A model generated the notes under the pieces. That model had not been told where the DNA came from. It did not search any database and saw only the letters and a program-made list of their open reading frames with translations. 64,000 nt of DNA. It comes from a virus. Taxonomy: Duplodnaviria; Caudoviricetes. Numbering within the stretch: the first letter of the stretch is position 1; each line of letters starts with the position of its first letter. Made by a program: the position numbers and the translations under genes. The stretch covers positions 1 to 64,000 of IMG/VR virus record IMGVR_UViG_3300020049_007105, one strand, 5' to 3'. Of this stretch, positions 5,335 to 50,076 are shown piece by piece.

Positions 5335-5766
5335 TCATTCATTGTAACACACCATGATAACCGAAAAACCTTCTGAAAGCTCACAGTTACAAACCATAGC
5401 TCTCAGCATATTCTTGGCATTTCCTTTGGCTAACATGTAGGCCGAGAACAATTCTCGGTATTCATGCTCATTTCTGGGCTTGTGAATGTAGTCAATACCA
5501 ATATCGACAATATGGCTGTAGTAAGTGCTATCAAAAACAGATTCTACGAGAGAAAGCTTGTTAGTCTCAAGAAGCACTACCCTTTGAGGGATTCCTTGAA
5601 TTACAGGCTTACATTCCACCCACATAGTGGCTTGCTTCTGATCTAACGTATAGTCGTCTGACACCCATTTAAAGTCAGCGTCTTGCCATTGCCTGATATA
5701 GATATCGGGAATAACCTTAAGTTGAGCCCGGTGGTCACTGTCGCTCAGTGCAGTAATTGTTGGCAT
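5335..5766 (-). CDS. hypothetical protein
   Basis: 143-aa ORF coupled (TAATG) to the upstream gene. Confidence 0.55.
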   Translation of the reverse strand: MPTITALSDSDHRAQLKVIPDIYIRQWQDADFKWVSDDYTLDQKQATMWVECKPVIQGIPQRVVLLETNKLSLVESVFDSTYYSHIVDIGIDYIHKPRNEHEYRELFSAYMLAKGNAKNMLRAMVCNCELSEGFSVIMVCYNE

Positions 5767-6407
5767 TAGAAACCCTGGTTGTTGAGATAGGCCCTAAGAA
5801 GGCTGCGGTTAGCTAGAATCAGGTTAGCCAACATGGCCTCTTTTTCCGAGTCTTGGACGGCTACAAACGTCCAATAATGGAGGGCTGTCCCCATCTCTCT
5901 CAAACTTTCTGGGCCCTGAAATGTATCCCAGGGCAGGTCGTAAAGTTCGTCCTCACAGTAGTTGTCAACTAGGTGGGACCAGTGCTCACCACCATCTCCA
6001 TCCATCGTTTCAGCCTTGGCCCTCTCAGCTTCCAAATTCTTGGAAGCACCAACCTCGTCCGCAAAAACGAGAAGTCGGTCCACATAGTCTTCTAGGGGCT
6101 CTACGTCCCCAATATCATACAGCTCAGCCTTTCCAATAGCATAGGTAAGAACCTGATAACCAGGCTCATCTGGATCGAAGTTAAACCAAGCCTTCTTGGC
6201 TGCCGAAAGCTCTACTACGTCTTCGGGAATCCTCATTTCCTTGAAATCCCTGATGGACTTTTCTGCCCAAAAGCTCCCCATGTCTTCCCAGAATGATGCT
6301 TCATTTCGCTCGATGCCTGAAATCATTTTACCGCTTTCTTTGGTTTGTTGTAAATGTTGTGTGAAATTGTAGCCAGATGGCTTACATATGTGTACATTTC
6401 TGCACAC
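5766..6407 (-). CDS. hypothetical acidic protein (true start probably MISGIERNE)
   Basis: Long ORF in the minus-strand arm; start uncertain. Confidence 0.55.
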   Translation of the reverse strand: MCRNVHICKPSGYNFTQHLQQTKESGKMISGIERNEASFWEDMGSFWAEKSIRDFKEMRIPEDVVELSAAKKAWFNFDPDEPGYQVLTYAIGKAELYDIGDVEPLEDYVDRLLVFADEVGASKNLEAERAKAETMDGDGGEHWSHLVDNYCEDELYDLPWDTFQGPESLREMGTALHYWTFVAVQDSEKEAMLANLILANRSLLRAYLNNQGF

Positions 6408-11880: not shown

Positions 11881-12915
11881 TTAATCCTTTTCTTTAGAAA
11901 GATACTTCCTAGAGATAGCCTTAAAGGTGTCGGATGAATTGTTCACATCAGGATAAGTGCCATCCAGGCTGTGCCACACGATGCCCTCTGTGAGCCGTTC
12001 TGGGACCTCCAGAGACTTGATGCCATCGGCCTGCTCCACTACCCCTTCGATGGTACCAGGCAGCTCCAGGTCGTACACATGCGCCCCCAAGTCCAAAGCC
12101 CAAGCGGGCCAAGTGTGTCGAGGGGCAGAAACCTTGTTTTTCAACAACTTGAAGATGAACGGTCGCTGCTTCTTGAGCCCCAGCTTGTTGGACTGAATGC
12201 TTGGACCAGCAATCTCCATCTGGATAGCATCGTACTCGCTGGCAAGCAGAGCCTCGTCCAAACCGAAGTCCTTGACGGCCTGAGCGTACCGATTGTCTTC
12301 CAGCGAGATTTGCCAGTTGCGAGAGCACAAGAAAAGTTCGTCACCATCTCGTGCAAGAGTGCATGAAGTCCCGTCGATCTTCTCGGTTGCAATCCAGTCG
12401 AGCTTCTGAATTTCGGCCCACTCGTCCTCAGTGAAGTTCTCCACACGAGGTGAATCGGTCTTGCTGGCAATATGAGTGGGAAACTTACCAATCTGTAGTC
12501 CACTACCGGAGTCAGGAAGTGGTGGCTCCCACTTACCGATGCCAATGTTGTCCTGTAGGGGCTGGCCGTTGCAACGGGACATTTCGATCGCAATACGAAA
12601 CTTGGACCGGGGCATAATGGTCCCCTGGCTGTATGTTCCACGAAGACGAACGGTCCTCAGGATGTGGTAGTCTTTTCCGTTAACAGTTCGCCGCCCAAAC
12701 TTAGCGTAAGACTCGAATCGTGGGTCGTCTAGGGGAAGGGCGCTATCAATTTCAAAGTAGACAACACTGTCACCAACCTGATAGTCACCCTTCCCTGAAA
12801 CCACCCACCAGTTCCGAACCTTATAGGCTTCGATATTGTCGGCGTTTTCAATTGGCCGTACTTCTTGAATTGTTTCAACCGAAACCAAGTTCCGGTCACT
12901 CTCGTAGTCAATCAT
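11881..12915 (-). CDS. RNA ligase with N-terminal OB domain (DRB0094/Rnl2-like)
   Basis: N-terminal IRPIENADNIE...YFEIDS...LRGTYSQG; motif I TEKIDGTS, EGIV, FKAIS. Confidence 0.85.
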   Translation of the reverse strand: MIDYESDRNLVSVETIQEVRPIENADNIEAYKVRNWWVVSGKGDYQVGDSVVYFEIDSALPLDDPRFESYAKFGRRTVNGKDYHILRTVRLRGTYSQGTIMPRSKFRIAIEMSRCNGQPLQDNIGIGKWEPPLPDSGSGLQIGKFPTHIASKTDSPRVENFTEDEWAEIQKLDWIATEKIDGTSCTLARDGDELFLCSRNWQISLEDNRYAQAVKDFGLDEALLASEYDAIQMEIAGPSIQSNKLGLKKQRPFIFKLLKNKVSAPRHTWPAWALDLGAHVYDLELPGTIEGVVEQADGIKSLEVPERLTEGIVWHSLDGTYPDVNNSSDTFKAISRKYLSKEKD

Positions 12916-13970: not shown

Positions 13971-15074
13971 CTAATTCCTTTCGGGTTTATCTGTCTTGTC
14001 GGGCTCAATGAGTTTCCAGATTGGCTTTCTCAGCTCCTTGTTGTCTTCAATTGAGAATACAAGGCCAGGGTTGTCGCTATTAGCAAGGTTTAGTTCCGCA
14101 AACTCCTTGCGGTCTACAGTACCCCAACCGATTTCTTTCTTGATGGCAGCCCAGTCTTGCATTGCCTTGCAATGAATTGCATCAAACTTCTCTCCAAGTT
14201 CAATTACCTTCTTGGTAATCCAGGGTGCGAACTCTTCTGGGACGGCTGCCATGAAGTCGTTCATTTTCTCTTCACTGAGATCAGGGTCACTGAGGAGTTC
14301 CCAAACCTTACGGCTGGAGAGGCCGAAGACAAAGCGATGAAGGGCTACATATTCTGAGGATTTCATCTTGGCCCGGATTGGTGGGCCTTCCGGCTGGTCC
14401 CAAACAAGCACTACGCCTTCGGTATTGGGTCGCTCCTCGACAAGCTTACTAATGTTGCAGTCATGCGCCCACAAGGTAGCTCTGTCGAATTGGCCAACGC
14501 TTTGAAGAAGCTGCGGGACCTCACCCAAGAAAACCCGACTTCCGTCGCTGTTGTTCACGGCATCCAGAAACACGAGGCCAGAATAATCGCCATAGTCTAC
14601 AACAATACGGTTCTCTGGATAAACGATCTCGAAAAGCAGGGTGGAATTGTGGCTGATAGTATCGTCCAGCCGACCTTCCAGGAACCGGCTCGCCCAGACC
14701 GCCTGATCCGAAGTGAAGGAGCCCCGTGTCGCAATCTTCACCCCAGTTGGGCTCGGGTAAGTAATACCCAGGGACCCGTCCATCTTTTCGATGACATTGT
14801 TTGGAGGCCACTCGGGAAGCGCCCCAAGTTCAGGCTTCTGTTCATGTTCCTGCACGTTAAAGAACTTTGGGAACGGCCGGGAAACAAGTAGTCCGTTTTC
14901 ATGGTCATAAATGAGACCCCGACACATCATCGTCACATCATCCCAGTTACCTTCATACTGGCACTGAGGCGTGTAGTTCAGGATGGCCAGGTAGTCGTAT
15001 TCGGGATGGTAGCGTCGAGAAATATTGCCAGCATCTATGTGCCAGTTGATCTTTGCAACATCTAGTTCAGCCAT
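13971..15074 (-). CDS. T4 Rnl1-like RNA ligase
   Basis: CRGLI...SRPFPKFFN, motif I IEKMDGSLG, ATRGSF, LFEIV, EGVV, KMKSSEY. Confidence 0.88.
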   Translation of the reverse strand: MAELDVAKINWHIDAGNISRRYHPEYDYLAILNYTPQCQYEGNWDDVTMMCRGLIYDHENGLLVSRPFPKFFNVQEHEQKPELGALPEWPPNNVIEKMDGSLGITYPSPTGVKIATRGSFTSDQAVWASRFLEGRLDDTISHNSTLLFEIVYPENRIVVDYGDYSGLVFLDAVNNSDGSRVFLGEVPQLLQSVGQFDRATLWAHDCNISKLVEERPNTEGVVLVWDQPEGPPIRAKMKSSEYVALHRFVFGLSSRKVWELLSDPDLSEEKMNDFMAAVPEEFAPWITKKVIELGEKFDAIHCKAMQDWAAIKKEIGWGTVDRKEFAELNLANSDNPGLVFSIEDNKELRKPIWKLIEPDKTDKPERN

Positions 15075-21384: not shown

Positions 21385-21400
21385 TGTGACGTTGGTCACA
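21385..21400. promoter_or_regulatory. CRP/GlxR-type palindrome
   Basis: TGTGA-CGTTGG-TCACA, exact TGTGA-N6-TCACA, in a divergent promoter gap. Confidence 0.55.
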
Positions 21401-21463
21401 TCTAGTTCGGCCGGATACCTATAGGTACGATATTCATAGGGAATCTCTAGAGAGGAATATCAC

Positions 21464-25045: not shown

Positions 25046-27808
25046 TTACCGAATTGGGCAAACCCCGGTCGCACAAGCATCAGCCGTGTCCAGTTCAGAG
25101 CCTTCGCCACGCTCAAAAGCATTAACCACATCCACGTCCAACATGGGCTGCAATGCCACCATCATGTCATACTGGGCCTCAGTGATTTCCTCATACGGCG
25201 CCAACTCATAGTTGCCGCCATCATGGGCGAGGAACGAGACGGCCGTGAAGTCATCCCAGCCGTCAAACACAATGCTGGAAGCGTCATCCCACTCGTCAGA
25301 CTTAACCGAGATGGTATTGCTCGCATTATGCTCGCAATAGTTCCGCTGGAACATGAAGTAGGTGTCCAACTGGCCCTGAACGCTGGAGTCATGCCGGTTA
25401 GCTGTGGGCGAGTGAACGGGGAACTCCACAACGACTGTACGGGCGTTCTCCATGCGCTCTTCATGGGTAGCACCAGGGGTACCCACCTCAGGCTTAAGAT
25501 CGAAGCCAGACGCCCTCAGGCCCTCAGCAACAGGGTCGTGAGAGGAGATGCGGATGCGACGAATGTAGTACTCGGCAAACGGATCGTGAACACCGGGTGA
25601 AACACCACCGGCAACCAGAGACAGCGTGCCTTCTGGCTTAACAGTGGTCACGAGCAGTGGACGGTTAACACCAAGCTCATCAGCGTAAAGGTCGGCTTCG
25701 TCTCGGGCAACCTTCTTAAGGATTTCGAGAAGGTTTGCTTGGAACTCAGGGCCAGCACCAACGGCAGCCATTGCATCCTGCCAACCCGTGAGAGAGAGGC
25801 CCAACAGGCGATCCCTCTGCTGAACTTCATCCCACGCTGGAAGCTCTAAGGTGGGCATTGTCATGCGGAGACCAATTCTTGCGGACATCCGCTGAGCTTT
25901 CTCCAGCTCAAACAGGTCAATGCTGTCATCCTTGACGAAAGCAGCCACGTTCACGGTGGTCAGGTTACAGACGCCCTTGGAGTCCAACAGGATTTCTGCA
26001 CACGGGTTGAGCCCCATGTTCTTGGCAAGCTCACGAATCTCTTCACCGGTAGCACTCTCACCGAGACGGCGTGAGGCAGCCTCATAAAGGTTGATAAACC
26101 CAGGCTCACCCTCAGACTGCATCAGCTCGAAGACGAAATTCAGATACTCCTTGGATGGCTTGTCAATGAAACCAATGCTGTTATTACTCATGCGGCGGTG
26201 ATGGTGCGGACGGCCGGGGTTCATGAGGACAGCATTCACCAGATTGATTGGCTGCTCCTCCATGTCGCTGGCAAGCATCACGGCACCATCTTCAAGCTGG
26301 TAGTGCCGAACCTTAATATCTTCCCACCAGCCAGGCAGTGGAACCCCAGCGGCAATAGCGGCCTCTTCAATTCGGTCCAGCTTGTCAAAACCTTCTTGAC
26401 CCCAGATACCGTTGATACCGAACTTGGCGAAGATCGACTCGTAGTCGTCAGGATCACAGATAAAGATTTCCGCAGTCCGTCTAACACCACCGACCACAAC
26501 ATTATTCCCGATGAAGTTACCAATGTCCAAAACATGGACCGGACGAAGATGAACGTAGTCTGAGTTGTTCAACACACCGGAGGGGCCAAGACCATCGTGG
26601 TGATAGAACTCACCAGTGATAATCTGAGTGATCGCTTCAAACATCTCAATGAGGGGCTGTGGGCCAGATGCTCGACCACCAAAAGTCTTCAGCTTCTCAC
26701 CTGCTGGGCGCACGTTGGACACATCAAGAATGATTCCGACTTCACCGTCAAGCCATGTCTGAGACAGAAACTGGAAGTAGTAGGTGAGAGCCTGAACCCA
26801 ACCCTCCTTGGAATCACCAACCACGATAGTCAATTCGTTGTCGTCACTGATATGGGTCTCGGTGAACTCAATGCGGTCTTCCGTGGCAGCTGGAGAGTTT
26901 GTGCTTGAATAAGAGATGTTTCGGTACAGCGGTGCCAGCTTGTTAGCCATTTCAACCGAGCAACGAAAACCAACACCAGTTCCCACCATCAGCATATAGA
27001 ACAGGTCCGAAAGGTCACCCCAGCTCTCGGTCTTCGTGTAACTACAGTTCTTGGTCAGAACGCCATTAAACAGAGCAAACGTCTCGGTCTGTGGCTCCTC
27101 GACACACCAAACATCTTCGGTCTCATAGCTGTTGTAATGCTCCTGGACAACCCAGGGGCTATCAATTAGCGGTTCGCCGTTCATCTCTGCAATGGCCAAC
27201 TTATCACCTTCATTGAGGTTAACAGTAGTACGCTCAGCCCGAGAATCATCACCGTTAGTGGTCAGCCAGCGATGATTCTCGGTAGTGCGAATGGCAATAG
27301 ACTTACCTTCACGTTCCATGCGAAGAATAACAATCTTGGCTGGACCGAAGTTGCGAACCTTCGCCTTAACCCACATGCCCGACTCATTGAGAACCTTGAC
27401 CTTAGCGCCGTCCTTAAACTCATTGAATGACTTAATGCCACCACGAGTCATGAACTGGGTGTCGCCAGTGAAGCAATTGAACTGACTGGTGGGGTGCTTT
27501 TCGGCTGCACCAGATTCTGCCCCTCCAACCCACATGGTTCGTCCAGAGGGAAACTGGTTCAGATTGTAGACCGAATGGAACATTGCTTGAGCTTCAAACT
27601 TCTTGGCTTCAAAAGTCTCGCGGTCACCAACCAGGCCAACATTGTAGTTGGTCGCCCGTGCAACAGCTTCCTTGTAAGTCTCACGGCGTTCAGAGCCTTC
27701 TTCTCCAACAACTCGGCTGTAGGTCCGAAGGAAGGTGAACTTTCCAAGCTCGGTCATGTGCTCAGGGAAATCGCTGTAGTTGTTGAGGAATTCGTTGTCA
27801 AGGTACAT
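25046..27808 (-). CDS. nrdJ: class II (B12-dependent, monomeric-type) ribonucleotide reductase, intein-containing
   Basis: FLRTYSR, PSGR..W, FN/CS, VVVGGVRRTA, NPCAEI, TTVKPEGT, C-terminal CATGVCPIR. Confidence 0.92.
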   Translation of the reverse strand: MYLDNEFLNNYSDFPEHMTELGKFTFLRTYSRVVGEEGSERRETYKEAVARATNYNVGLVGDRETFEAKKFEAQAMFHSVYNLNQFPSGRTMWVGGAESGAAEKHPTSQFNCFTGDTQFMTRGGIKSFNEFKDGAKVKVLNESGMWVKAKVRNFGPAKIVILRMEREGKSIAIRTTENHRWLTTNGDDSRAERTTVNLNEGDKLAIAEMNGEPLIDSPWVVQEHYNSYETEDVWCVEEPQTETFALFNGVLTKNCSYTKTESWGDLSDLFYMLMVGTGVGFRCSVEMANKLAPLYRNISYSSTNSPAATEDRIEFTETHISDDNELTIVVGDSKEGWVQALTYYFQFLSQTWLDGEVGIILDVSNVRPAGEKLKTFGGRASGPQPLIEMFEAITQIITGEFYHHDGLGPSGVLNNSDYVHLRPVHVLDIGNFIGNNVVVGGVRRTAEIFICDPDDYESIFAKFGINGIWGQEGFDKLDRIEEAAIAAGVPLPGWWEDIKVRHYQLEDGAVMLASDMEEQPINLVNAVLMNPGRPHHHRRMSNNSIGFIDKPSKEYLNFVFELMQSEGEPGFINLYEAASRRLGESATGEEIRELAKNMGLNPCAEILLDSKGVCNLTTVNVAAFVKDDSIDLFELEKAQRMSARIGLRMTMPTLELPAWDEVQQRDRLLGLSLTGWQDAMAAVGAGPEFQANLLEILKKVARDEADLYADELGVNRPLLVTTVKPEGTLSLVAGGVSPGVHDPFAEYYIRRIRISSHDPVAEGLRASGFDLKPEVGTPGATHEERMENARTVVVEFPVHSPTANRHDSSVQGQLDTYFMFQRNYCEHNASNTISVKSDEWDDASSIVFDGWDDFTAVSFLAHDGGNYELAPYEEITEAQYDMMVALQPMLDVDVVNAFERGEGSELDTADACATGVCPIR
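27047..27475 (-). mobile_element. 143-aa mini-intein in RNR
   Basis: Starts CFTGDT; block B TTENHRW; block F VWCVEE; ends VLTKN followed by Cys+1; no endonuclease domain. Confidence 0.88.
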
Positions 27809-27961
27809 AGAGGGGCCTTTCAGGCAAAGTAAAGGTTTGATAATTAACTAGTGAGATAGATATCGGGTCGCTTTATCTGAAGTGGATTAACCTCGGGGGG
27901 AATATGCTGGCACCCGTAGGGTTGTCAGATTCTCTTACTTTGTTTTGTATATGAGAATCTC

Positions 27962-28279
27962 TCAAGCGTAGGAGTAACAGCTAATTAAACCGTTGTCAGC
28001 CACCAGTAGGAACGGTCCAATCTTGAGATGGTAGCCATCCATATCATAGGTGTCGGGCAATTCTTTCTGAAGCCACTCTGGGCTCATTAGGGCTTGATCT
28101 GAATACGCAGCAATCTTATCCCCGACTGCCACAACTCTACCACTAGTGGTATTAATCTGGCTGAGCTGGAGATCACTGTCGGCGTAAACGAGTGACCTGA
28201 TTCCATCACATGCCTCCAGGGATGGCCAGAATAACTCTTTGTTCTCATCGGTCACTGCGACTATGGGTGTTTCATCCAC
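27962..28279 (-). CDS. hypothetical protein
   Basis: ORF directly left of the symmetric locus. Confidence 0.45.
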   Translation of the reverse strand: MDETPIVAVTDENKELFWPSLEACDGIRSLVYADSDLQLSQINTTSGRVVAVGDKIAAYSDQALMSPEWLQKELPDTYDMDGYHLKIGPFLLVADNGLISCYSYA

Positions 28280-28405
28280 TGAACTACGTCCAAACGGTCG
28301 CTGTGGACCTATTGAGGTTAAGGTGCTTTCGGGAACCCTCCATCTTACACTCTAAGCGGCTCTATAACAATTGGAGCGTGTGTGACGTGTGTCATAGCCT
28401 GTACC

Positions 28406-29240
28406 AATAAAGTGAAAGACAGTTCCACGTATCGGCCCAAGCGTTCACGCGTGGTGGGTACCACTCTCCGACGCTCCATGTGTCAAGGGCTCTGTGGTGT
28501 ATTTTGCAGTCGGCGCCAGCCGATCTGCTGTTTGAGCGTAGCGAGTACGAGGGCGTAGCCCGAGGGGTTCGTAGCCGCAGGCCGAACCCGTGTCAGTAAC
28601 AGTTAGGAGACAAGGATCAGGAGAGACAGAACAAGAACTAAGCAGGAACCTACGTCAAGCGCAGTGTGTGTTTAGGTAGTACAACCCCGGATTCCGATGG
28701 TTTATTCCAACTAATTCAAATTCTTTCTGTGACGTGGGTCACAATCTCGAAATCGACCCCGGTCTGTACGCCAGCTTGCTCTTTGATCTGGCCAGCAAGG
28801 TCAGGGTCAGTCAGTGTCCAGATGAACTGAATTCCTTGCCAGTACAGCACTGTGACGAACGACACATCAGTAATTTGAAATAACGGGAATAAAGTGACGG
28901 GATTCGGTGTTTTACTACTTATTACATCCACACGCTCGACGTATGTTCCCACACAATATTACTCTCCTGACTTTACTGCCTCTCCTAACTCTTACTGTAT
29001 GGGTTGCGGCTGCGCCTAGCAACCCCTCGGGCTGACGCCCTCGTCCCCTCCCCGGGTCGGCTGGCGCCGACCGGGGAATTGAATAAAGAACAACGCAATG
29101 GAACGCCTGCACTGCGACGACCGGGACTCAGCGGTGCGAACCTACAGCCGGTGTCCACTTACGAGAGACGTGGTGACTGGTCACAACTACAGACGCCACC
29201 CACGATGGGGGCTAAGCATGGAACTGTCTTTCACTTTATT
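28406..29240. repeat. ~835-bp degenerate inverted duplication, putative bidirectional replication origin
   Basis: At least eight nested reverse-complement blocks, including a perfect 22-mer at 28406-28427/29219-29240; lies at the coding-strand switch. Confidence 0.8.
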
Positions 29241-29323
29241 TCGGTTAGACAGAGAGGGCTTAAGTCTAAGAATTTCGATCTTGTAGTAGAACACATTTGG
29301 CCTAGAATTCTGGAGAGAACAAC

Positions 29324-30957: not shown

Positions 30958-31100
30958 ACGCTTTGACGCACGACGAGAAGAAGATGAAAGCCGTGGAGTT
31001 CTTGGAGGACGAGATGCTTGCTGGGGCTTTCATTAAGCTCGCACAGGAGGCTGCCAGCTTCAGGGTCCCACTGGACTTCTTGGTGGGAAGGCTCTGGTAA
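30954..31100 (+). CDS. 48-aa hypothetical protein (not in the ORF track)
   Basis: GTG overlaps the upstream TGA, GAGG RBS, and the ORF fills the gap to terL. Confidence 0.5.
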   Translation: MNALTHDEKKMKAVEFLEDEMLAGAFIKLAQEAASFRVPLDFLVGRLW

Positions 31101-31104
31101 GACA

Positions 31105-33192
31105 ATGATTGAGCGTCCTACTGAAGAAGAAGCTTGTTTGGTAGCAATCCTCCAAGACCACTCTGGGCTTGATCAGGCTGAGTTCATGTGGGTGGATAGG
31201 TCCGACATGGAGACTGGTGCTGACGCCTGTTGGCGTGCATGGCCCTTCCAGTACAGCTGGTGGCGCTGTAAGGACCCTAAGCAGATCGAGCAGGGGGCTC
31301 GGTGCTTGGCTGAGGGCACGCCTGTAATGTACCGTACAGGCCCCACAGAGCCGTGGCAGTGGAGCCCGATCGAGGACATTGAGCCTGGCGCTTGGGTGCT
31401 CACCCATACTGGCAACTCTAAACAGGTCATTGCTGTTCACGATAACGGTGTCGAACCGACTGTGAGCGTAAGTCTGTTTAATGGTATTCGCATCCGATGC
31501 ACCCCTACCCACAAGTTCTACACGAAGGATGGGGCAGAGGTTGGCTGGAAAGACCCATTGAACTGGGACCGCCATACGAAGGTTCGGGTGTATATTAACG
31601 GTGAGTGGTCCTGGGAGAATGTTCGGACAATTGCCGAAACCCCTGACTCTTGCCGGGTTTATGACCTAGAGGTCGAGGATGACCATAGCTATGTCGCCAG
31701 TGGGATTGTGGTTCACAACTCTATTGGCAAGTCGCTGGGGATTAAGGCACGAGCCACGGCTTTTCCTTTCTGCTACCCAGGTCAGGAGATGGTTCTTACT
31801 GCACCAGAAAACAAGCATCTTTTGACGATTACTGACTCGATTGAAACTGCGTATAGTTCAAGCAAGATTCTTTCGTCCATGCTTAAGTCTGGAGTTCAGG
31901 GGATTACCCACCGGCCGTTCAAGATGAACTTCAAGAATGGTGCTCGTATTCTCGGTGCGACTCCGAACACTGACGGCTCTGGTGTGAAGGGTTTGCACCC
32001 TATCGTTCTGGAGCAGGATGAGGCTTCTGACTACCCCCATAGGGGCTGGATTGAGCTTATCGAGACTGTTAAGCAGACCAGTGGCAGGAGCGAATGGCGG
32101 GCACACGGCGTAACCAGGGGTGTTCAGGATAGATTCTGGAGCTACACTCAGCCCGACTCGGGTTGGAAGGTTCACCACATTTCAGCAATTCACCGCCCCA
32201 CTTGGACGGACGAAGAGCGTCAGTCAAAGATCAGGGACTATGGCGGTGGTGCTAGTGACCCTGAGTATTTGAGAAACGTGATGGGTCTTCACGGTAACGC
32301 TGTGAACCCTATCTTCATTAAGTCTCGTCTAGCGGAGTGCTTTAACTTCGACATGGACTCCAAGCACAACAAGGACGAGTACCAACACTATACGATTACG
32401 AGTGAGATGATCGAGGATGCTGGTGGTATCGACTTGTTTCTTGACCTGCCCTACTCACACAAGAAGTACAAGAATGTGTGGATCGGAATGGACGTTGGCT
32501 ACACTGAGGACCCAACTGAGATTTTGTGCTTCGCTGAGGTTCTAAAGGCAGGTAAGGTCACCCTGAAGTTGGTTAGCCGGTTCTCTCTTCAGAGGAATAC
32601 GGTTAACGATCAGAGTACTGCCATGATGTACCTGTTAGACTTCTATGACACGAAGGCTTTCGGTATGGACGGTACTGGTAACGGCCTGCCGCTGTATCAG
32701 AGTGTCATCCATACGGCCAGCACGGACCCTTACTACAGGGCTCAGGGCTATCAGCATATGATCCAGAGCTACAACTTCTCTCAGAAGATCATGATCGGCT
32801 ATAAGGATACTGCCCTTGAAGTGGAGTCTGAGAATCCGCTGGCTGACGACTTGAAGGACGTTGAGTACGACGAAGAAATCTTTAGGCCGGTTCTTGAGTA
32901 TAGCACAGATGTGCTCAGATACCTGGTGGACAACACGCTGCTCCAGATGCCCGGTGACAATGATGTCTACAACCACTTCCAGGCCCAGACCTACATGATC
33001 CGCAAGGCTAAGACTGATGAGTATGGCCGTTCAAGAAAGTTCTCTAGCGGTTCTTATCACACTCTGGACGCAGCGAGAATGGCAGCGCTGGCTTGGAGGC
33101 AGGCCAAGATTGCTGAGATTGAAGAGGCTCGTCGCCGTGGCAAGGAGCACGCCTTTGTCCCGGTACTATCCAGAATGACAACCCAGTTCTAA
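31105..33192 (+). CDS. terL: terminase large subunit, intein-containing
   Basis: Spliced Walker A GAR/SIGKS, Walker B LEQDEA, nuclease IGMDVG...DPT, MDGTGNG, HTLDA. Confidence 0.88.
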   Translation: MIERPTEEEACLVAILQDHSGLDQAEFMWVDRSDMETGADACWRAWPFQYSWWRCKDPKQIEQGARCLAEGTPVMYRTGPTEPWQWSPIEDIEPGAWVLTHTGNSKQVIAVHDNGVEPTVSVSLFNGIRIRCTPTHKFYTKDGAEVGWKDPLNWDRHTKVRVYINGEWSWENVRTIAETPDSCRVYDLEVEDDHSYVASGIVVHNSIGKSLGIKARATAFPFCYPGQEMVLTAPENKHLLTITDSIETAYSSSKILSSMLKSGVQGITHRPFKMNFKNGARILGATPNTDGSGVKGLHPIVLEQDEASDYPHRGWIELIETVKQTSGRSEWRAHGVTRGVQDRFWSYTQPDSGWKVHHISAIHRPTWTDEERQSKIRDYGGGASDPEYLRNVMGLHGNAVNPIFIKSRLAECFNFDMDSKHNKDEYQHYTITSEMIEDAGGIDLFLDLPYSHKKYKNVWIGMDVGYTEDPTEILCFAEVLKAGKVTLKLVSRFSLQRNTVNDQSTAMMYLLDFYDTKAFGMDGTGNGLPLYQSVIHTASTDPYYRAQGYQHMIQSYNFSQKIMIGYKDTALEVESENPLADDLKDVEYDEEIFRPVLEYSTDVLRYLVDNTLLQMPGDNDVYNHFQAQTYMIRKAKTDEYGRSRKFSSGSYHTLDAARMAALAWRQAKIAEIEEARRRGKEHAFVPVLSRMTTQF
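31303..31719 (+). mobile_element. 139-aa mini-intein in the TerL Walker A
   Basis: CLAEGT...CTPTHKFY...VYDLEV..HSYVASGIVVHN followed by Ser+1. Confidence 0.92.
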
Positions 33193-38086: not shown

Positions 38087-38159
38087 AGGCAGTTCCCCGG
38101 ACCCGCTAACGCCTTAGGGCGTGCGGCCGGGGCAGTAGTACCCTTTCCTTAGGTAGATG

Positions 38160-38187
38160 GTAGCCGGGTCCTTCGGGGCTCGGCTAC
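38160..38187 (+). terminator. head-operon terminator
   Basis: GTAGCCGGGTCC-TTCG-GGGCTCGGCTAC followed by TTCTCGTT. Confidence 0.75.
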
Positions 38188-38229
38188 TTCTCGTTAGGGG
38201 CTTGACTGACCCACGGCAACCTGCTACGC

Positions 38230-40198: not shown

Positions 40199-40399
40199 GT
40201 GTCAAAAGTAATTCTAACTAAGGGCCTCCCGGCATCGGGTAAAAGTACTTGGGCAAGAGGATGGGTTGCAAAGAAGCCTACTGCTCGTGTCCGGGTTAAC
40301 AAGGATGATCTCCGTGAAGCACTTCATGGAGGTAAGTTCTCTAAGGGCAACGAGAAGGACATTCTTGACGCTGAAGCGGCGGATGGGCTGTATGCCTGA
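40199..40399 (+). pseudogene. truncated polynucleotide kinase (Pnk, AAA_33-like) N-terminus
   Basis: VILTKGLPASGKSTWAR...RVNKDDLR is the Pnk kinase start; the frame stops after 66 aa, inside the dnaE start region. Confidence 0.75.
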
Positions 40400-43300
40400 A
40401 TTTGTACACCTACATCAACATACTCACCACTCCATGCTGGATGGTGCATCTAAGGCTTCTGACGCTGTTGCTGAAATTGTTCGCCAGGGTGGCAAAGGTC
40501 TTGCTATTACTGATCATGGTAATATGTTCGGCGCTGTTGACTTCTACCGGGAGTGCAAGAAGCAGGGTGTCAACCCTATTCTGGGTATTGAGGCTTATGC
40601 CGCTAAGGCTGGGGTGGGTGAACGCCCGAGTACTTCTAAGAAGGTTGGTGAGGGGGACGAGGGTGGTAACACTGCTAGCGGAAAGGCATATTACCACCAG
40701 CTTCTTTTGGCTAGGAACTATGAGGGTTTTCAGAATCTGATGAAGCTTAGCTCTAGGGCCTATACTGAGGGCTTCTATTACAAGCCACGGCTCGATCTGG
40801 CGATGTTGGAGGATCACTCCAAGGGTCTGATTGCTACTACCTCTTGCCTTGGCGGTGTTCCTCTTCAGCTCATTATGGCTGGCAAGGATCGTGAGGCTAT
40901 GAACTATGTGGCCGGTCTTAAAGATATTATGGAGCCAGGCCATCTTTTTGTGGAGCTTCAGGACCATGGCATCCTTGAACAGAAGGAGACTAACCCGACA
41001 CTTATTCAGATTGCCAGGAAGCTCGATCTCCCCCTTGTTGCTACGAACGATTCCCATTATGTTCACGCTCATGACCATGAGACCCATGATGCGCTTTTGT
41101 GCATCCAGACTCGTGCAAAGATTTCTGACACGGATCGGTTTAAGTTCCAGGGCCAGGATTTCTATCTGAAGACTGCTGATGAGATGGCACGGGTCTTTGA
41201 TGGTCTCCCTGAGGCTTTGTCTAACACCATGTTGATTAACGATATGGTGGATATTGAGCTACCCACTCAGATCAGTGGGTTGCCGCACTTTCCTTTGCCG
41301 GAAGGTTTTATTGATGAACGTGATTATCTTACCCATCTAGTAAAGCTTGGAGCCAATAAGCGCTATGCCGGAACTGATGTGGATTTTGATGCGGTGGTGG
41401 ATCGAATTGAATATGAACTGGGCGTCATTTGTGAGATGGGCTTTGCGTCCTATTTTCTGATTAACTGGGATTTGATTCGGGAGGCTCATGAGCGAGGCAT
41501 CCTCTGTGGTTTTGGCCGGGGCAGTGCGGCTGGTTGTGCTGTTGCATATTGCTTGAACATTACCAAGGTTGACCCGATTCGGCATGGCCTAATTTTTGAG
41601 CGGTTCCTGAATCCGTCCAGGGTTTCGATGCCTGATATTGATTCAGACTTTCAGGCTGACCGTCGAGATGAACTCATTCAATACCTCAAGGACACCTATG
41701 GTATTGATCATGTTGCTCAGGCGATTACTTTCGGAGTGATCCGCTCTAAGGCTGCACTGAAGGATTCGACTAGGGTCCAAGGCTATGACTACGCTGATGG
41801 CGAAAGACTGTCCAAGGCTTTCCCTGACCCCCTGTTTGGCCGTCAGGCGCCCATTGGAGCGGTGCTACACGAGGTTCCGGGACTTGAGTGGGCCTATGAG
41901 AGCGGGCAAGATTTCCGTGCCTTAGCGGGCTCCACACCGGCTATGAGCGCTATCGTGAAACTGGCTCAAGCCATTGAGGGCATCAAGCGTTCTGAGTCGA
42001 TTCACCCAAGTGCGCTTATTATTTCCGACAGGCCCCTCCTTGAGGTGTGCCCTACAGGCCGGAAGCCCGGTGGACCACTATTTACTCAGTGGGAGCAGGA
42101 TATTCTTGAAGCCCTTGGCCTCCTGAAGCTCGACATCCTTGGGTTAAAGAACTTGGACATTTTGGGAAGGTGCATTACAAGGGTTTTGGCCGCTGGCATT
42201 GAGGTCCCCGACATCTATGAATCCAACCCTCAGTTTAAGGATGAGGCTACATATAAGCTTTTAGCGGCCGGTAAGTCTATTGGCGTGTTTCAGCTTGAGT
42301 CTCCAGCCATGAGGGCTCTGCTGAGAAAGATGGTGCCGAACTCCATTGAGGACATCTCGGCAACTATCGCTTTGTATCGTCCAGGGCCAATGTCCCAGGA
42401 CTACCATAACATTTTTGCTGATAGGAAGAATGGTCGAGTCCCTATTGCAAGCATCCATGAACGACTGGAGCCGTTGCTAAAGGACTCCTACCAGCTCCCA
42501 ATCTACCAAGAACAGGTCATGACCATCAGTCGTGAGGCTGCTCAGTTTGATATGGTTGAGGCTGACAACATGCGTAAGGCCATGGGTAAGAAAGATCAGG
42601 GCCTCCTTGATTCTTTCCGTGAGAAGTTTGTTCAGGGTTGTATTGACAATGATTACACCGAGGAATTCTCTAACAGACTGTTCGATGGTCTAGAGGATTA
42701 CGCCAGCTATGCGTTTAACGCTTCTCACAGTATGGGCTATGCGTATTTGTCATACTGGACTGCATATTTCAAGGCTAACCACACTGGGTTCTATATGGCG
42801 GCACTAATGGATTATGCCGCTGACCTAGACGGTTTGAAGCCCTTGCTGGCAGAGACTCAGAGTTTGGGTGTTAAGATCATGCCCCCTACGGTCCAGTCTA
42901 AGATGAACAGCTTCACTTTTGACCCAGAGGTTAACGGCATTCACTTTCCTTTGTCTTCGATTAAGGGTGTTGGTAAGATTGGTGATATAATCTCTGAGGG
43001 CGCCCCATATGATGATGTGTGGGATTTTGCTGCCAGAGTGGCTATCAATGCTAGCGCTTTCCAAGCGGTCGCCAGGTCAGGTGGTTTTGATTCTCTGACT
43101 GACGAGACAAGGGAGACTCTGATTTTTAATCAGGATACGATACTTACACACGGAAGGTCTAAGATCAAAGACAACAAGGTTGGTGCTATGTCTCTGTTTG
43201 GGGATGAGGATTTCTATCCCGAGTTGGAACAGAACCCGGAGCCTGAGGATGAGGCGGTAACGCTTAATCACGAGAAGGATTACATAGGTGTGTTCCTGAG

Positions 43301-43619
43301 TGGTCATCCCGTGGATGGCTTCGAGGGTATTTCGGAGATGTTTATCTCTGAGATCAATGAACACGAGTTTGACGGTTCTTATATTGTTGCCGCTTATCTT
43401 GATAAGGCTACTGCCTTCAGGACTAAGAAGGGCAAGATGATGGCGAAGTTGACACTGGAGGATAGGTCGGGCTCGCTTGAGGCAGTTCTGTTTCCGAATA
43501 GTTACAAGATTTTTGAGGCTGATCTGAAGGATAAGCAGGTCTATGATTTCACTCTTAAGGTGTCTCACCGCCAAGGGGAGGTGACGATTTCGGTAGACAG
43601 TATGACGCAATTGGATTAA
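40392..43619 (+). CDS. dnaE: DNA polymerase III alpha subunit (phage DnaE)
   Basis: PHP domain FVHLHQHT.HS.LDG, AITDHG, TNDSHY; polymerase GRGSAAG, MPDIDSDF, KLDILGL; C-terminal OB fold. Confidence 0.95.
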   Translation: MPEFVHLHQHTHHSMLDGASKASDAVAEIVRQGGKGLAITDHGNMFGAVDFYRECKKQGVNPILGIEAYAAKAGVGERPSTSKKVGEGDEGGNTASGKAYYHQLLLARNYEGFQNLMKLSSRAYTEGFYYKPRLDLAMLEDHSKGLIATTSCLGGVPLQLIMAGKDREAMNYVAGLKDIMEPGHLFVELQDHGILEQKETNPTLIQIARKLDLPLVATNDSHYVHAHDHETHDALLCIQTRAKISDTDRFKFQGQDFYLKTADEMARVFDGLPEALSNTMLINDMVDIELPTQISGLPHFPLPEGFIDERDYLTHLVKLGANKRYAGTDVDFDAVVDRIEYELGVICEMGFASYFLINWDLIREAHERGILCGFGRGSAAGCAVAYCLNITKVDPIRHGLIFERFLNPSRVSMPDIDSDFQADRRDELIQYLKDTYGIDHVAQAITFGVIRSKAALKDSTRVQGYDYADGERLSKAFPDPLFGRQAPIGAVLHEVPGLEWAYESGQDFRALAGSTPAMSAIVKLAQAIEGIKRSESIHPSALIISDRPLLEVCPTGRKPGGPLFTQWEQDILEALGLLKLDILGLKNLDILGRCITRVLAAGIEVPDIYESNPQFKDEATYKLLAAGKSIGVFQLESPAMRALLRKMVPNSIEDISATIALYRPGPMSQDYHNIFADRKNGRVPIASIHERLEPLLKDSYQLPIYQEQVMTISREAAQFDMVEADNMRKAMGKKDQGLLDSFREKFVQGCIDNDYTEEFSNRLFDGLEDYASYAFNASHSMGYAYLSYWTAYFKANHTGFYMAALMDYAADLDGLKPLLAETQSLGVKIMPPTVQSKMNSFTFDPEVNGIHFPLSSIKGVGKIGDIISEGAPYDDVWDFAARVAINASAFQAVARSGGFDSLTDETRETLIFNQDTILTHGRSKIKDNKVGAMSLFGDEDFYPELEQNPEPEDEAVTLNHEKDYIGVFLSGHPVDGFEGISEMFISEINEHEFDGSYIVAAYLDKATAFRTKKGKMMAKLTLEDRSGSLEAVLFPNSYKIFEADLKDKQVYDFTLKVSHRQGEVTISVDSMTQLD

Positions 43620-49989: not shown

Positions 49990-50076
49990 GTCTCGAATAA
50001 CACCAAATACGATATACCTAAGGAACCTACCTGTTAGATGCAGCTAGCACAAATCTATTCTTAGGGAGTATCCTCC

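Follow-up and report, generated by a model that had tools for sequence, protein, structure and literature searches.

What is the function of about 835 bp of non-coding, two-fold symmetric DNA at the point where the genes of a phage turn away from each other? The question is raised by positions 28406-29240 of a stretch of DNA from a tailed virus (Duplodnaviria, Caudoviricetes; IMG/VR record IMGVR_UViG_3300020049_007105). The window, the whole stretch that was analysed, is the first 64 kb of this 99.9-kb linear record, whose completeness is estimated at 73%. From 1 to 28.3 kb the genes point leftward, from 29.3 to about 74.4 kb rightward, and past that point leftward once more; on both sides they diverge from the locus, as the original prediction had noted. 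That prediction took the locus for a symmetric, bipartite origin of replication. The reading favored here, to which a probability of roughly 40% may be attached, is that the locus consists of paired divergent promoter-plus-hairpin leader modules. Most weight is placed on this reading because the conserved part is promoter-like, the units face their own operons, and classical origin features are missing. An origin of the ssi (single-strand initiation) type stays a strong rival because of its strand-specific mini-hairpin clusters and the GC skew; behind it in the ranking stand two small RNA (sRNA) genes, a packaging or other protein-binding region, and small open reading frames (ORFs).

The description of the locus as one degenerate inverted duplication is correct, and all of the pairs named in the original prediction are present. 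The outer block (28406-28427 and 29219-29240) matches at 22 of 22 positions and a hairpin block (28509-28523 and 29057-29071) at 15 of 15; the further pairs are a 23-nt block with one indel, the hairpin at 28565-28589 and 29001-29025, an AG-rich block, and a GGAAC block. The TTTATTCC-N6-TTCAAATT pair and the palindromes at 28728-28743 and 28851-28866 are likewise mirror copies. Because the three inner pairs share a common axis at 28797, the inner 150 nt or so of each arm are free of indels. When the sequence is compared with its own reverse complement, BLAST aligns 28547-28743 with 28851-29044 (about 195 nt) at 71% identity (E 4.6e-17), and a MAFFT alignment of arm to arm has a mean column identity of 75%. 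No second copy occurs in the 99.9-kb record. The outer block, perfect in this record, is not fixed: the two copies in the related strain L098 each carry one different substitution, and the block is absent from a fourth lineage, L102. The element has been assembled at 99.8-99.9% identity in four independent ENA contigs and again in the 96%-identical strain, and one contig from a DNA run spans the locus. Since at least five independent assemblies run across the element, both a misassembly and a junction of genome or contig ends are excluded. A miniature inverted-repeat or insertion-sequence derivative was also considered and rejected: no direct duplication flanks the 22-bp ends, the element is single-copy, and homologous units stand at the same locus in relatives.

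Selection within the locus was measured against strain L098/L099, which is about 96% identical over the region. Substitutions per site amount to 0.015 in the left arm and 0.026 in the right arm, against 0.084 in the 107-bp centre, 0.056 in the left untranslated stretch, 0.057 in the flanking 105-aa gene, and 0.033 in the flanking 101-aa gene. The arms are conserved 3-5 times better than the centre (Fisher p 0.0017) and better also than the flanking genes (p 0.013), in agreement with the earlier proposal of selection on two functional half-sites. The locus is a pair of constrained units around a free, neutral spacer. The freedom of the centre argues against a single machine whose centre matters, and the combination of a free centre with arms under stronger constraint than the neighboring genes favors promoter-leader modules. 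Other uses of the centre were rejected. A 78-codon ORF across it meets a stop codon in L098, and its changes are mostly replacements; an ORF at 28734-28883, in which five of 11 changes are conservative replacements, lacks both a ribosome-binding site and relatives and was judged non-coding. An attP site was dismissed as well, given the fast evolution of the centre and that no integrase was seen.

The syntenic genomes L012 (TerL 57% identical) and L013/L014 (59%) likewise have a long gap where the coding strand switches, so that four copies of the unit can be compared: the left and right arms of the window and one copy each from L012 and L013. The part common to all four is the core alone. Read outward, every copy has an A/T-rich tract, GGAATAAA, 15 nt that are free and mostly GC-rich, GTT(G/T)T, and some 20-45 conserved nucleotides. 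Invariant short motifs held at a fixed distance across a variable spacer have the anatomy of a promoter. The particular combination, GGAAT and GTT with an 18-nt spacer in all four copies, is the motif of sigma-H/R-type promoters. The actinobacterial consensus for these extracytoplasmic function (ECF) sigma factors is GGAAT-N18-19-GTT, and GGAATAA is its strong form, found in the trxB1 promoter (PMC10012870). Both motifs and the spacing are exact in all four copies, including the GGAATAA form of trxB1; on the other hand, the match comprises eight specified bases, and the one pointer to an actinobacterial host is a weak lead to Actinomycetota from the lysin. Readings of the blocks as sigma-54, SPO1-type, or sigma-28 promoters were tried by inspection and did not fit. 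The features of the locus, from left to right, are as follows (a strand is named where the feature has one).

28361-28366, minus strand: -10-like hexamer of a putative proximal leftward promoter of the extended -10 type (TGn and TATAGA), read from the sequence; the TGn-TwTAGA layout and about the next 11 nt are kept in L102.
28381-28396: palindrome O1, operator-like with a CRP-like sequence (TGTGA-N6-TCAtA), which overlaps the -35 region of the putative leftward promoter; its core GTGAC-N4-GTCAC is kept in L102, and a similar box lies at 5818-5833 of L012.
28406-28427: left outer 22-bp block, the reverse complement of 29219-29240, with an AATAAAG box; one substitution in L098, not conserved in L102.
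28428-28505, minus strand: left distal segment, diverged from its right counterpart, with zero changes against L098; about 25 nt adjoining hairpin h are kept in L102.
28506-28528: left hairpin h, loop GCCA on the plus strand, a GCGNNAGC mini-hairpin motif.
28551-28561: left hairpin g1, a 4-bp stem with a GTA loop on the plus strand (GCGNAGC).
28565-28589: left hairpin g2, a stem of 7+3 bp with a GCA loop on the plus strand and compensatory changes relative to the right copy.
28594-28625, minus strand: pyrimidine-rich block of the left arm, CUCUCCU-type on the outward strand, absent from L012 and L013.
28640-28708, minus strand: left core, candidate ECF-type outward promoter, with GGAAT at 28708-28704, an 18-nt variable spacer, GTT at 28685-28683, and then about 40 conserved nt.
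28715-28722: A/T-rich block placed like an UP element, upstream of the left core, and A/T-rich in all four copies.
28728-28743: palindrome O2, a perfect TGTGA-N6-TCACA, centered about 61 bp upstream of the inferred left start.
28744-28850: central spacer, non-coding and fast-evolving, with nine substitutions in 107 bp against L098.
28851-28866: palindrome O3, mirror of O2, matching at 9 of 10 half-site positions.
28872-28879: A/T-rich block upstream of the right core, counterpart of 28715-28722.
28886-28958, plus strand: right core, candidate ECF-type outward promoter, with GGAAT at 28886-28890, an 18-nt spacer, GTT at 28909-28911, and then about 45 conserved nt.
28962-28997, plus strand: tandem pyrimidine-rich repeat of the right arm, period about 18, 1.9 copies.
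29001-29025: right hairpin g2, GCA loop on the minus strand (GCGNAGC).
29029-29040: right hairpin g1, loop GTCA on the minus strand (GCGNNAGC), GTA in L098.
29050-29076: right hairpin h, 11-12 bp, loop GCCA on the minus strand, no U-tract behind.
29077-29218, plus strand: right distal segment, with an AATAAAG box (29082) and a palindrome GTGAC-TG-GTCAC (29173-29184); three substitutions in 142 bp against L098.
29219-29240: right outer 22-bp block; a similar T-rich block occurs in L013.
29246-29273, plus strand: candidate proximal rightward sigma-70-like promoter, TAGACA-16-AAGAAT before the holin-like gene, a consensus match only; its -10 region resembles 6305-6325 of L012.

The CRP-like palindromes, rare in this genome, count in favor of promoter-leader modules. 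In the whole genome a perfect TGTGA-N6-TCACA occurs at 28728-28743 and 21385-21400, and sites matching at 9 of 10 positions occur at 28381-28396 and 28851-28866; one of the two perfect sites and both of the near-perfect ones therefore lie at the locus. By chance about 0.1 perfect site would be expected per 100 kb, by estimate. O2 and O3 each stand 20 nt upstream of a GGAAT, with no indel between the arms, and with a transcription start about 11 nt past the G of GTT, the centre of the palindrome would fall near -61.5, a classical activator position. No HTH_Crp_2 domain, the mark of a CRP-family protein, is found in the sequenced 73% of the genome, and it is possible that the palindromes bind a host protein or another phage dimer. 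The perfect copy at 21385-21400 precedes a plus-strand lysin gene inside the minus-strand arm, about 36 nt upstream of a CGATAT motif.

Comparison with relatives indicates how the pair may have arisen. L012 and L013 have one unit each. That of L012 is on the minus strand, faces the ribonucleotide reductase (RNR) operon, and carries left-type sequence after GTT; that of L013 is on the plus strand, faces the rightward genes, and is of the right type. Similarity is 0.62-0.63 for pairs of the same type and 0.52-0.56 across types, and the two window arms score 0.65 with each other. The distance from core to first gene is about 390-460 nt, and each type faces its own operon in both genomes that carry it. 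We infer that an old duplication was followed by some homogenisation in the present lineage, and that each relative has lost one unit. L012 retains the right-arm hairpin h beside its left-type core, which is what a deletion would leave. Because each relative has a single unit, two-fold symmetry is not essential, and the symmetric bipartite design of the original prediction is not required. The expectation that related contigs would carry the same ordered blocks holds for the single core units of L012 and L013 but not for the pair, the hairpins, or the pyrimidine block. In L102, hairpin h is retained together with the 25 nt beside it, and so are palindrome O1 and the putative proximal promoter. 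In the left distal region of L012 a different palindrome, GGTGAA-N3-TTCACC, occurs twice (5752-5766 and 5905-5919), which suggests a lineage-specific operator. Wider searches added little: exact and degenerate DNA patterns gave chance matches only among viral contigs, protein-guided scans of viral contigs for close relatives found nothing, a metagenome scan returned two distant loci that both lack the element, in more distant TerL relatives the upstream region is occupied by other, inserted genes and there is no unit within 9 kb, and a search for a cultured relative found none.

If the arms are promoter-leader modules, two ancient paralogous non-coding units would stand back to back, rather than one integrated machine. 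The left module would face the 105-aa gene, the RNR, and the dUTPase, and the right module the holin-like gene, the terS-like gene, and TerL. Each would open with an outward ECF-sigma-type promoter that has, in this phage, a CRP-like palindrome before it at about -61 and, after it, a conserved stretch that would be transcribed first. The transcript would pass through the pyrimidine stretch and the three hairpins and over the distal segment to the proximal promoter-operator and the first gene, some 400 nt away, and the hairpin part would be a cis-acting leader, either an attenuator or an antiterminator. One regulator could in this way set early and late transcription on both sides, with a logic like that of nutL/nutR and putL/putR. 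The duplication, the selection, the motif matches, the covariation of the hairpins, and the single unit of the relatives are observed; the firing of the cores, the direction and start of transcription, and the function of the leader are inferred.

Phage elements of comparable layout are known. In lambda, nutL and nutR are paired elements behind the divergent early promoters PL and PR. The put RNAs of HK022, about 70 nt long with two stem-loops each, are paired elements behind divergent phage promoters (PMC9378689). Like put and nut, the elements described here are sequence-related, inverted stem-loop elements, each of which would lie downstream of one divergent promoter and act on its own operon. 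Compared with put, g2 and g1 are adjacent and are joined by a third hairpin, about 90-160 nt past each candidate start. In other respects the locus differs: there is no sequence or Rfam similarity to put or nut, the promoters look ECF-type rather than sigma-70, the whole promoter-plus-leader unit is duplicated here (about 350-390 bp per arm), and the loops fit DNA rather than RNA motifs.

The hairpins themselves follow a fixed order in both arms: outward from the core come a pyrimidine-rich stretch (tandem on the right) and then the GC hairpins g2, g1, and h. The g2 stem covaries between the arms, with pairs 132-146, 133-145, and 135-141 changed on both sides; the g1 loop differs in length between strains (GTCA here, GTA in L098) over an unchanged stem; and both arms, L012, and L102 have the same 17-nt core in hairpin h. 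As a cluster, the hairpins fold better than shuffled sequences (z -1.9 to -4.1). Whole-arm folding energies are unremarkable, except for one arm on one strand. A C-rich, rut-like leader was considered and rejected, as the property is confined to the right arm, whose outward strand, in the 78-nt windows 0 and 13 nt after GTT (28909 onward), has C/G of 3.7-3.9, among the highest 0.03% of sense-strand windows; neither the left arm nor the relatives share it.

The covariation of g2 bears on the suggestion that the locus is a region bound by proteins at the DNA level, for packaging (a pac or cos site, for example) or otherwise, with the AATAAAG boxes and palindromes as its sites. The locus does lie 1 kb upstream of the terS-like and TerL genes, and it holds several palindromes and five AATAAA(G/C) boxes against 0.4 expected, with a similar three-box layout in L013. 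Changes on both sides of a stem, however, favor hairpins over the recognition of duplex half-sites; the assemblies that cross the locus, at least five in number, have no common break point; and the left arm faces away from the packaging genes. A packaging or similar binding region is thus quite unlikely.

A number of observations weigh against promoter-leader modules. Beyond the two arms, the genome holds no other convincing copy of GGAAT-N18-GTT. No matching host sigma factor can be named, and the phage's single sigma gene appears to go with a different motif, the CGATAT that lies before late genes and is absent from the locus. Metatranscriptome contigs from runs X18 and X19 (low-depth assemblies from one study) include none over 27804-29301, a gap from which, at such depth, nothing firm follows about the arms. 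The hairpins fold equally on either strand, with RNA or DNA parameters, so that energy does not reveal which strand is used. Their loops do not belong to the stable RNA loop classes and all fit a DNA mini-hairpin motif on the template strand, which points to folding at the DNA level. Neither arm has an intrinsic terminator, as hairpin h lacks a U-tract and is followed on the outward strand by A-rich sequence. Conservation of the hairpins and of the pyrimidine block does not extend to L012 or L013, each of these genomes has one operon without a module, and the best Rfam matches, with E of at least 1, fall far below the gathering scores.

Some observations on transcription stand beside these. 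A weak T-run follows the left hairpin h on the inward strand only. The RNA contigs of X18 and X19 cover the RNR gene and the region rightward from 29302/29309, and their shared start near 29302-29309 gives a weak hint of the proximal rightward promoter. Many late genes have the CGATAT motif a short way upstream, with no -35 element in evidence, for example at 21428, 27865 (minus strand), 30200, 33599, and 35271, with more sites at 50010, 51395, 52564, and 90307 (minus strand). The motif is similar to the -10 element of sigma-28-type promoters and may be recognized by the sigma factor that the phage itself encodes. At 72907-73116 of the genome, a 522-aa open frame includes a sigma-70 region 2 domain.

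The same core and hairpins could instead delimit two divergent, trans-acting sRNA genes of about 150-170 nt, each running from the core promoter to hairpin h, with seeds (the 5' stretch or CUCUCCU) directed against ribosome-binding sites of host or phage. A promoter-like core, a conserved 5' region of about 45 nt, a strong 3' hairpin, and pyrimidine-rich motifs resembling an anti-Shine-Dalgarno sequence are what such genes would show, and in the relatives one copy is enough. Hairpin h without a U-tract and the lack of an Rfam match are difficult to reconcile with this proposal, as is the absence of the pyrimidine block from L012 and L013. The only longer complementarity within the phage genome is a single 13-mer, about the chance expectation, and an RNA that ends at h leaves the equally constrained distal 150 nt or so unexplained. 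We consider paired sRNA genes improbable.

The distal segments could in principle encode small proteins, in ORFs at 29098-29286 (plus strand, 62 aa) and 28345-28479 (minus strand, 44 aa). Both begin with MER and read the 22-bp block in one frame as ELSFTL, and one L098 substitution in the left block is synonymous. Against this, third codon positions are not favored among the changes relative to L098 (left 3 of 8, right 0 of 3), a stop codon immediately precedes the homologous block in L013, and L102 lacks the block. There is no good ribosome-binding site, and the indels that separate the inner parts of the two arms have lengths not divisible by three. A coding role is very unlikely.

The most serious competitor to promoter-leader modules is a replication origin. 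The origin reading receives no direct support in that iterons are lacking, AT content is ordinary, and the skew is mixed; a point in its favor is that the hairpin loops lie on the strand that would template outward synthesis. The AT-rich melting blocks that were predicted are not borne out, as AT content peaks at 70% over 40 bp and 62% over 100 bp, and many coding windows are richer. At the locus no direct-repeat family exceeds two-copy chance matches, the only k-mers present three or more times are the palindrome half-site and AATAAA, and by inspection the best match to a DnaA box is 7 of 9, in one arm only. Elsewhere, an iteron-like array at 98531-98985 of the genome (L100 2032-2486) was rejected, since its 18-bp unit, repeated 25 times, codes for a G-N-A-x-V-x hexapeptide repeat in a 313-aa ORF on the minus strand; the 40 bp richest in AT of the whole genome (71547-71586) lie inside a coding region and were likewise set aside.

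The skew test called for in the original prediction gave a divided answer: cumulative GC skew has its minimum at 27.7 kb, at the locus, but this point coincides with the switch of coding strand, and the maximum, at 74.5 kb, is at the other switch. Of the three genes that run against their arm, the lysin gene flips the sign of the skew and two keep the arm's sign. As evidence for an origin, GC skew is ambiguous.

Hairpin folding at the DNA level is suggested by the loops. Read on the plus strand for the left arm and on the minus strand for the right, every loop is a G-N-A or G-N-N-A with a closing C-G pair and belongs to the mini-hairpin class GCGNAGC / GCGNNAGC / CCGNAGG. Such motifs number four within 70 nt on the left and three within 55 nt on the right; the opposite strands have none. 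The motif is not enriched in the genome relative to shuffled sequence, but only five same-strand clusters occur in 99.9 kb, and two of them are these arms. Extra-stable mini-hairpins of this type occur in the complementary-strand origin of G4, in ssiA of RSF1010, and in the virion-polymerase promoters of N4 (PMC13037366). A same-strand cluster, also on the template strand, lies in the capsid 3' untranslated region (38096-38229), where one member is the complement of a UUCG-loop terminator; a survey of terminator loops yielded too few to judge whether template-strand G-N-N-A is usual in this phage.

An origin that makes use of these signals would be opened by transcription: the outward promoters would open the duplex, three to four mini-hairpins per arm would prime for the primase-helicase, and DnaE would extend both leading strands, as a chromosomal analogue of RSF1010 ssiA/ssiB or of the promoter-origins of T7 and T4. 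Promoter-leader modules and such an origin share the promoters and differ in the role of the hairpins. The strand-specific clusters, on opposite strands in the two arms, argue for priming, and the motif survives the change of loop length in L098. The skew minimum at the locus and the two of three counter-oriented genes that keep their arm's sign are also consistent with it, as is the single unit of the relatives, to be expected if either half can start replication, and no better candidate was seen in the sequenced 73% of the genome. Against it stand the lack of iterons and of a marked unwinding element, the coincidence of the skew switch with the coding-strand switch, and the sign reversal in the lysin gene. 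The replisome genes are 11-45 kb away and the primase-helicase 40 kb, the L012 unit has no such mini-hairpins, the motifs of L013 lie on the opposite strand relative to the core, and the loop-class match was noticed after the fact. On balance an origin of this type is a real possibility, if an unlikely one. Somewhat more doubtful still is the fuller claim of a bipartite, iteron-free origin of an undescribed kind, a counterpart of IncQ ssiA/ssiB in which each arm launches one leading strand for DnaE.

Two known systems bear on these ideas. Promoter-type phage origins are exemplified by the primary origin of T7 and by oriF and oriG of T4, in which the unwinding block that follows the promoter is clearly AT-rich. 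In common with them, the present locus has a candidate promoter followed by a region that a transcript would open or prime, no iterons, and a phage replisome with a gp4-like primase-helicase; it differs in having GC-rich hairpins downstream, and a doubled divergent layout has not been described for T7 or T4. A T7 gp4-like primase-helicase ORF (a weak Toprim match and DnaB_C) is located at about 69.2-71.1 kb of the genome. The other system, RSF1010, is a precedent for the architecture, which the original prediction did not recognise from a described phage origin: its oriV has two inverted 40-nt repeats as priming sites (PMC8567376), and ssiA holds a C-GNA-G mini-hairpin (PMC13037366). As in oriV, where ssiA and ssiB serve the primase RepB', related hairpin signals are inverted on opposite strands, here with three to four motifs per arm. 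Unlike the present locus, RSF1010 has its own 20-bp iterons and, next to the ssi pair, an AT-rich block; neither is seen here. In place of a RepB'-type or Prim-Pol primase, neither of which was found, this phage has the gp4-like primase-helicase, and its arms are ten times longer and begin with promoter-like cores.

To the left of the locus lie the 105-aa gene, a class II-like RNR, a dUTPase, and an exonuclease; to the right are a holin-like 101-aa gene, a RuvC-like gene on the opposite strand, a terS-like 221-aa gene, and an intein-bearing TerL, followed rightward by head genes and then by the DnaE-type polymerase (40266-43619), a gene that the original prediction had rightly included. TerL (31018-33192) has an Intein_splicing match at residues 194-234, and its homologues range from 540 to about 1260 aa with varied Hint/LAGLIDADG insertions. 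The RNR (25046-27808) has 920 aa, compared with 775-776 aa in L012 and L013, the extra 145 aa or so lying N-terminal of the family match. The leftward arm also encodes ThyX, a GH16 glucanase, and two RNA ligases (11881-12915 and 13971-15074; Rnl-type with an OB-fold domain, T4 Rnl1-like).

Nine studies have wastewater, activated-sludge, or sediment runs in which the phage is present. In this lineage some 730 bp of non-coding DNA are conserved above the level of the surrounding genes, and for almost all uncultured phages both origins and early control regions are unknown. If the arms are promoter-leader units, a whole control cassette would have been duplicated in mirror image to drive both gene arms, and the ECF sigma-H/R-type promoter with its CRP-type site would offer a hint to the host. 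If they are instead priming signals, the ssi and mini-hairpin principle would be extended from small plasmids and single-stranded DNA phages to large double-stranded DNA phages, and would provide a sequence signature for finding origins in metagenomic phage genomes.

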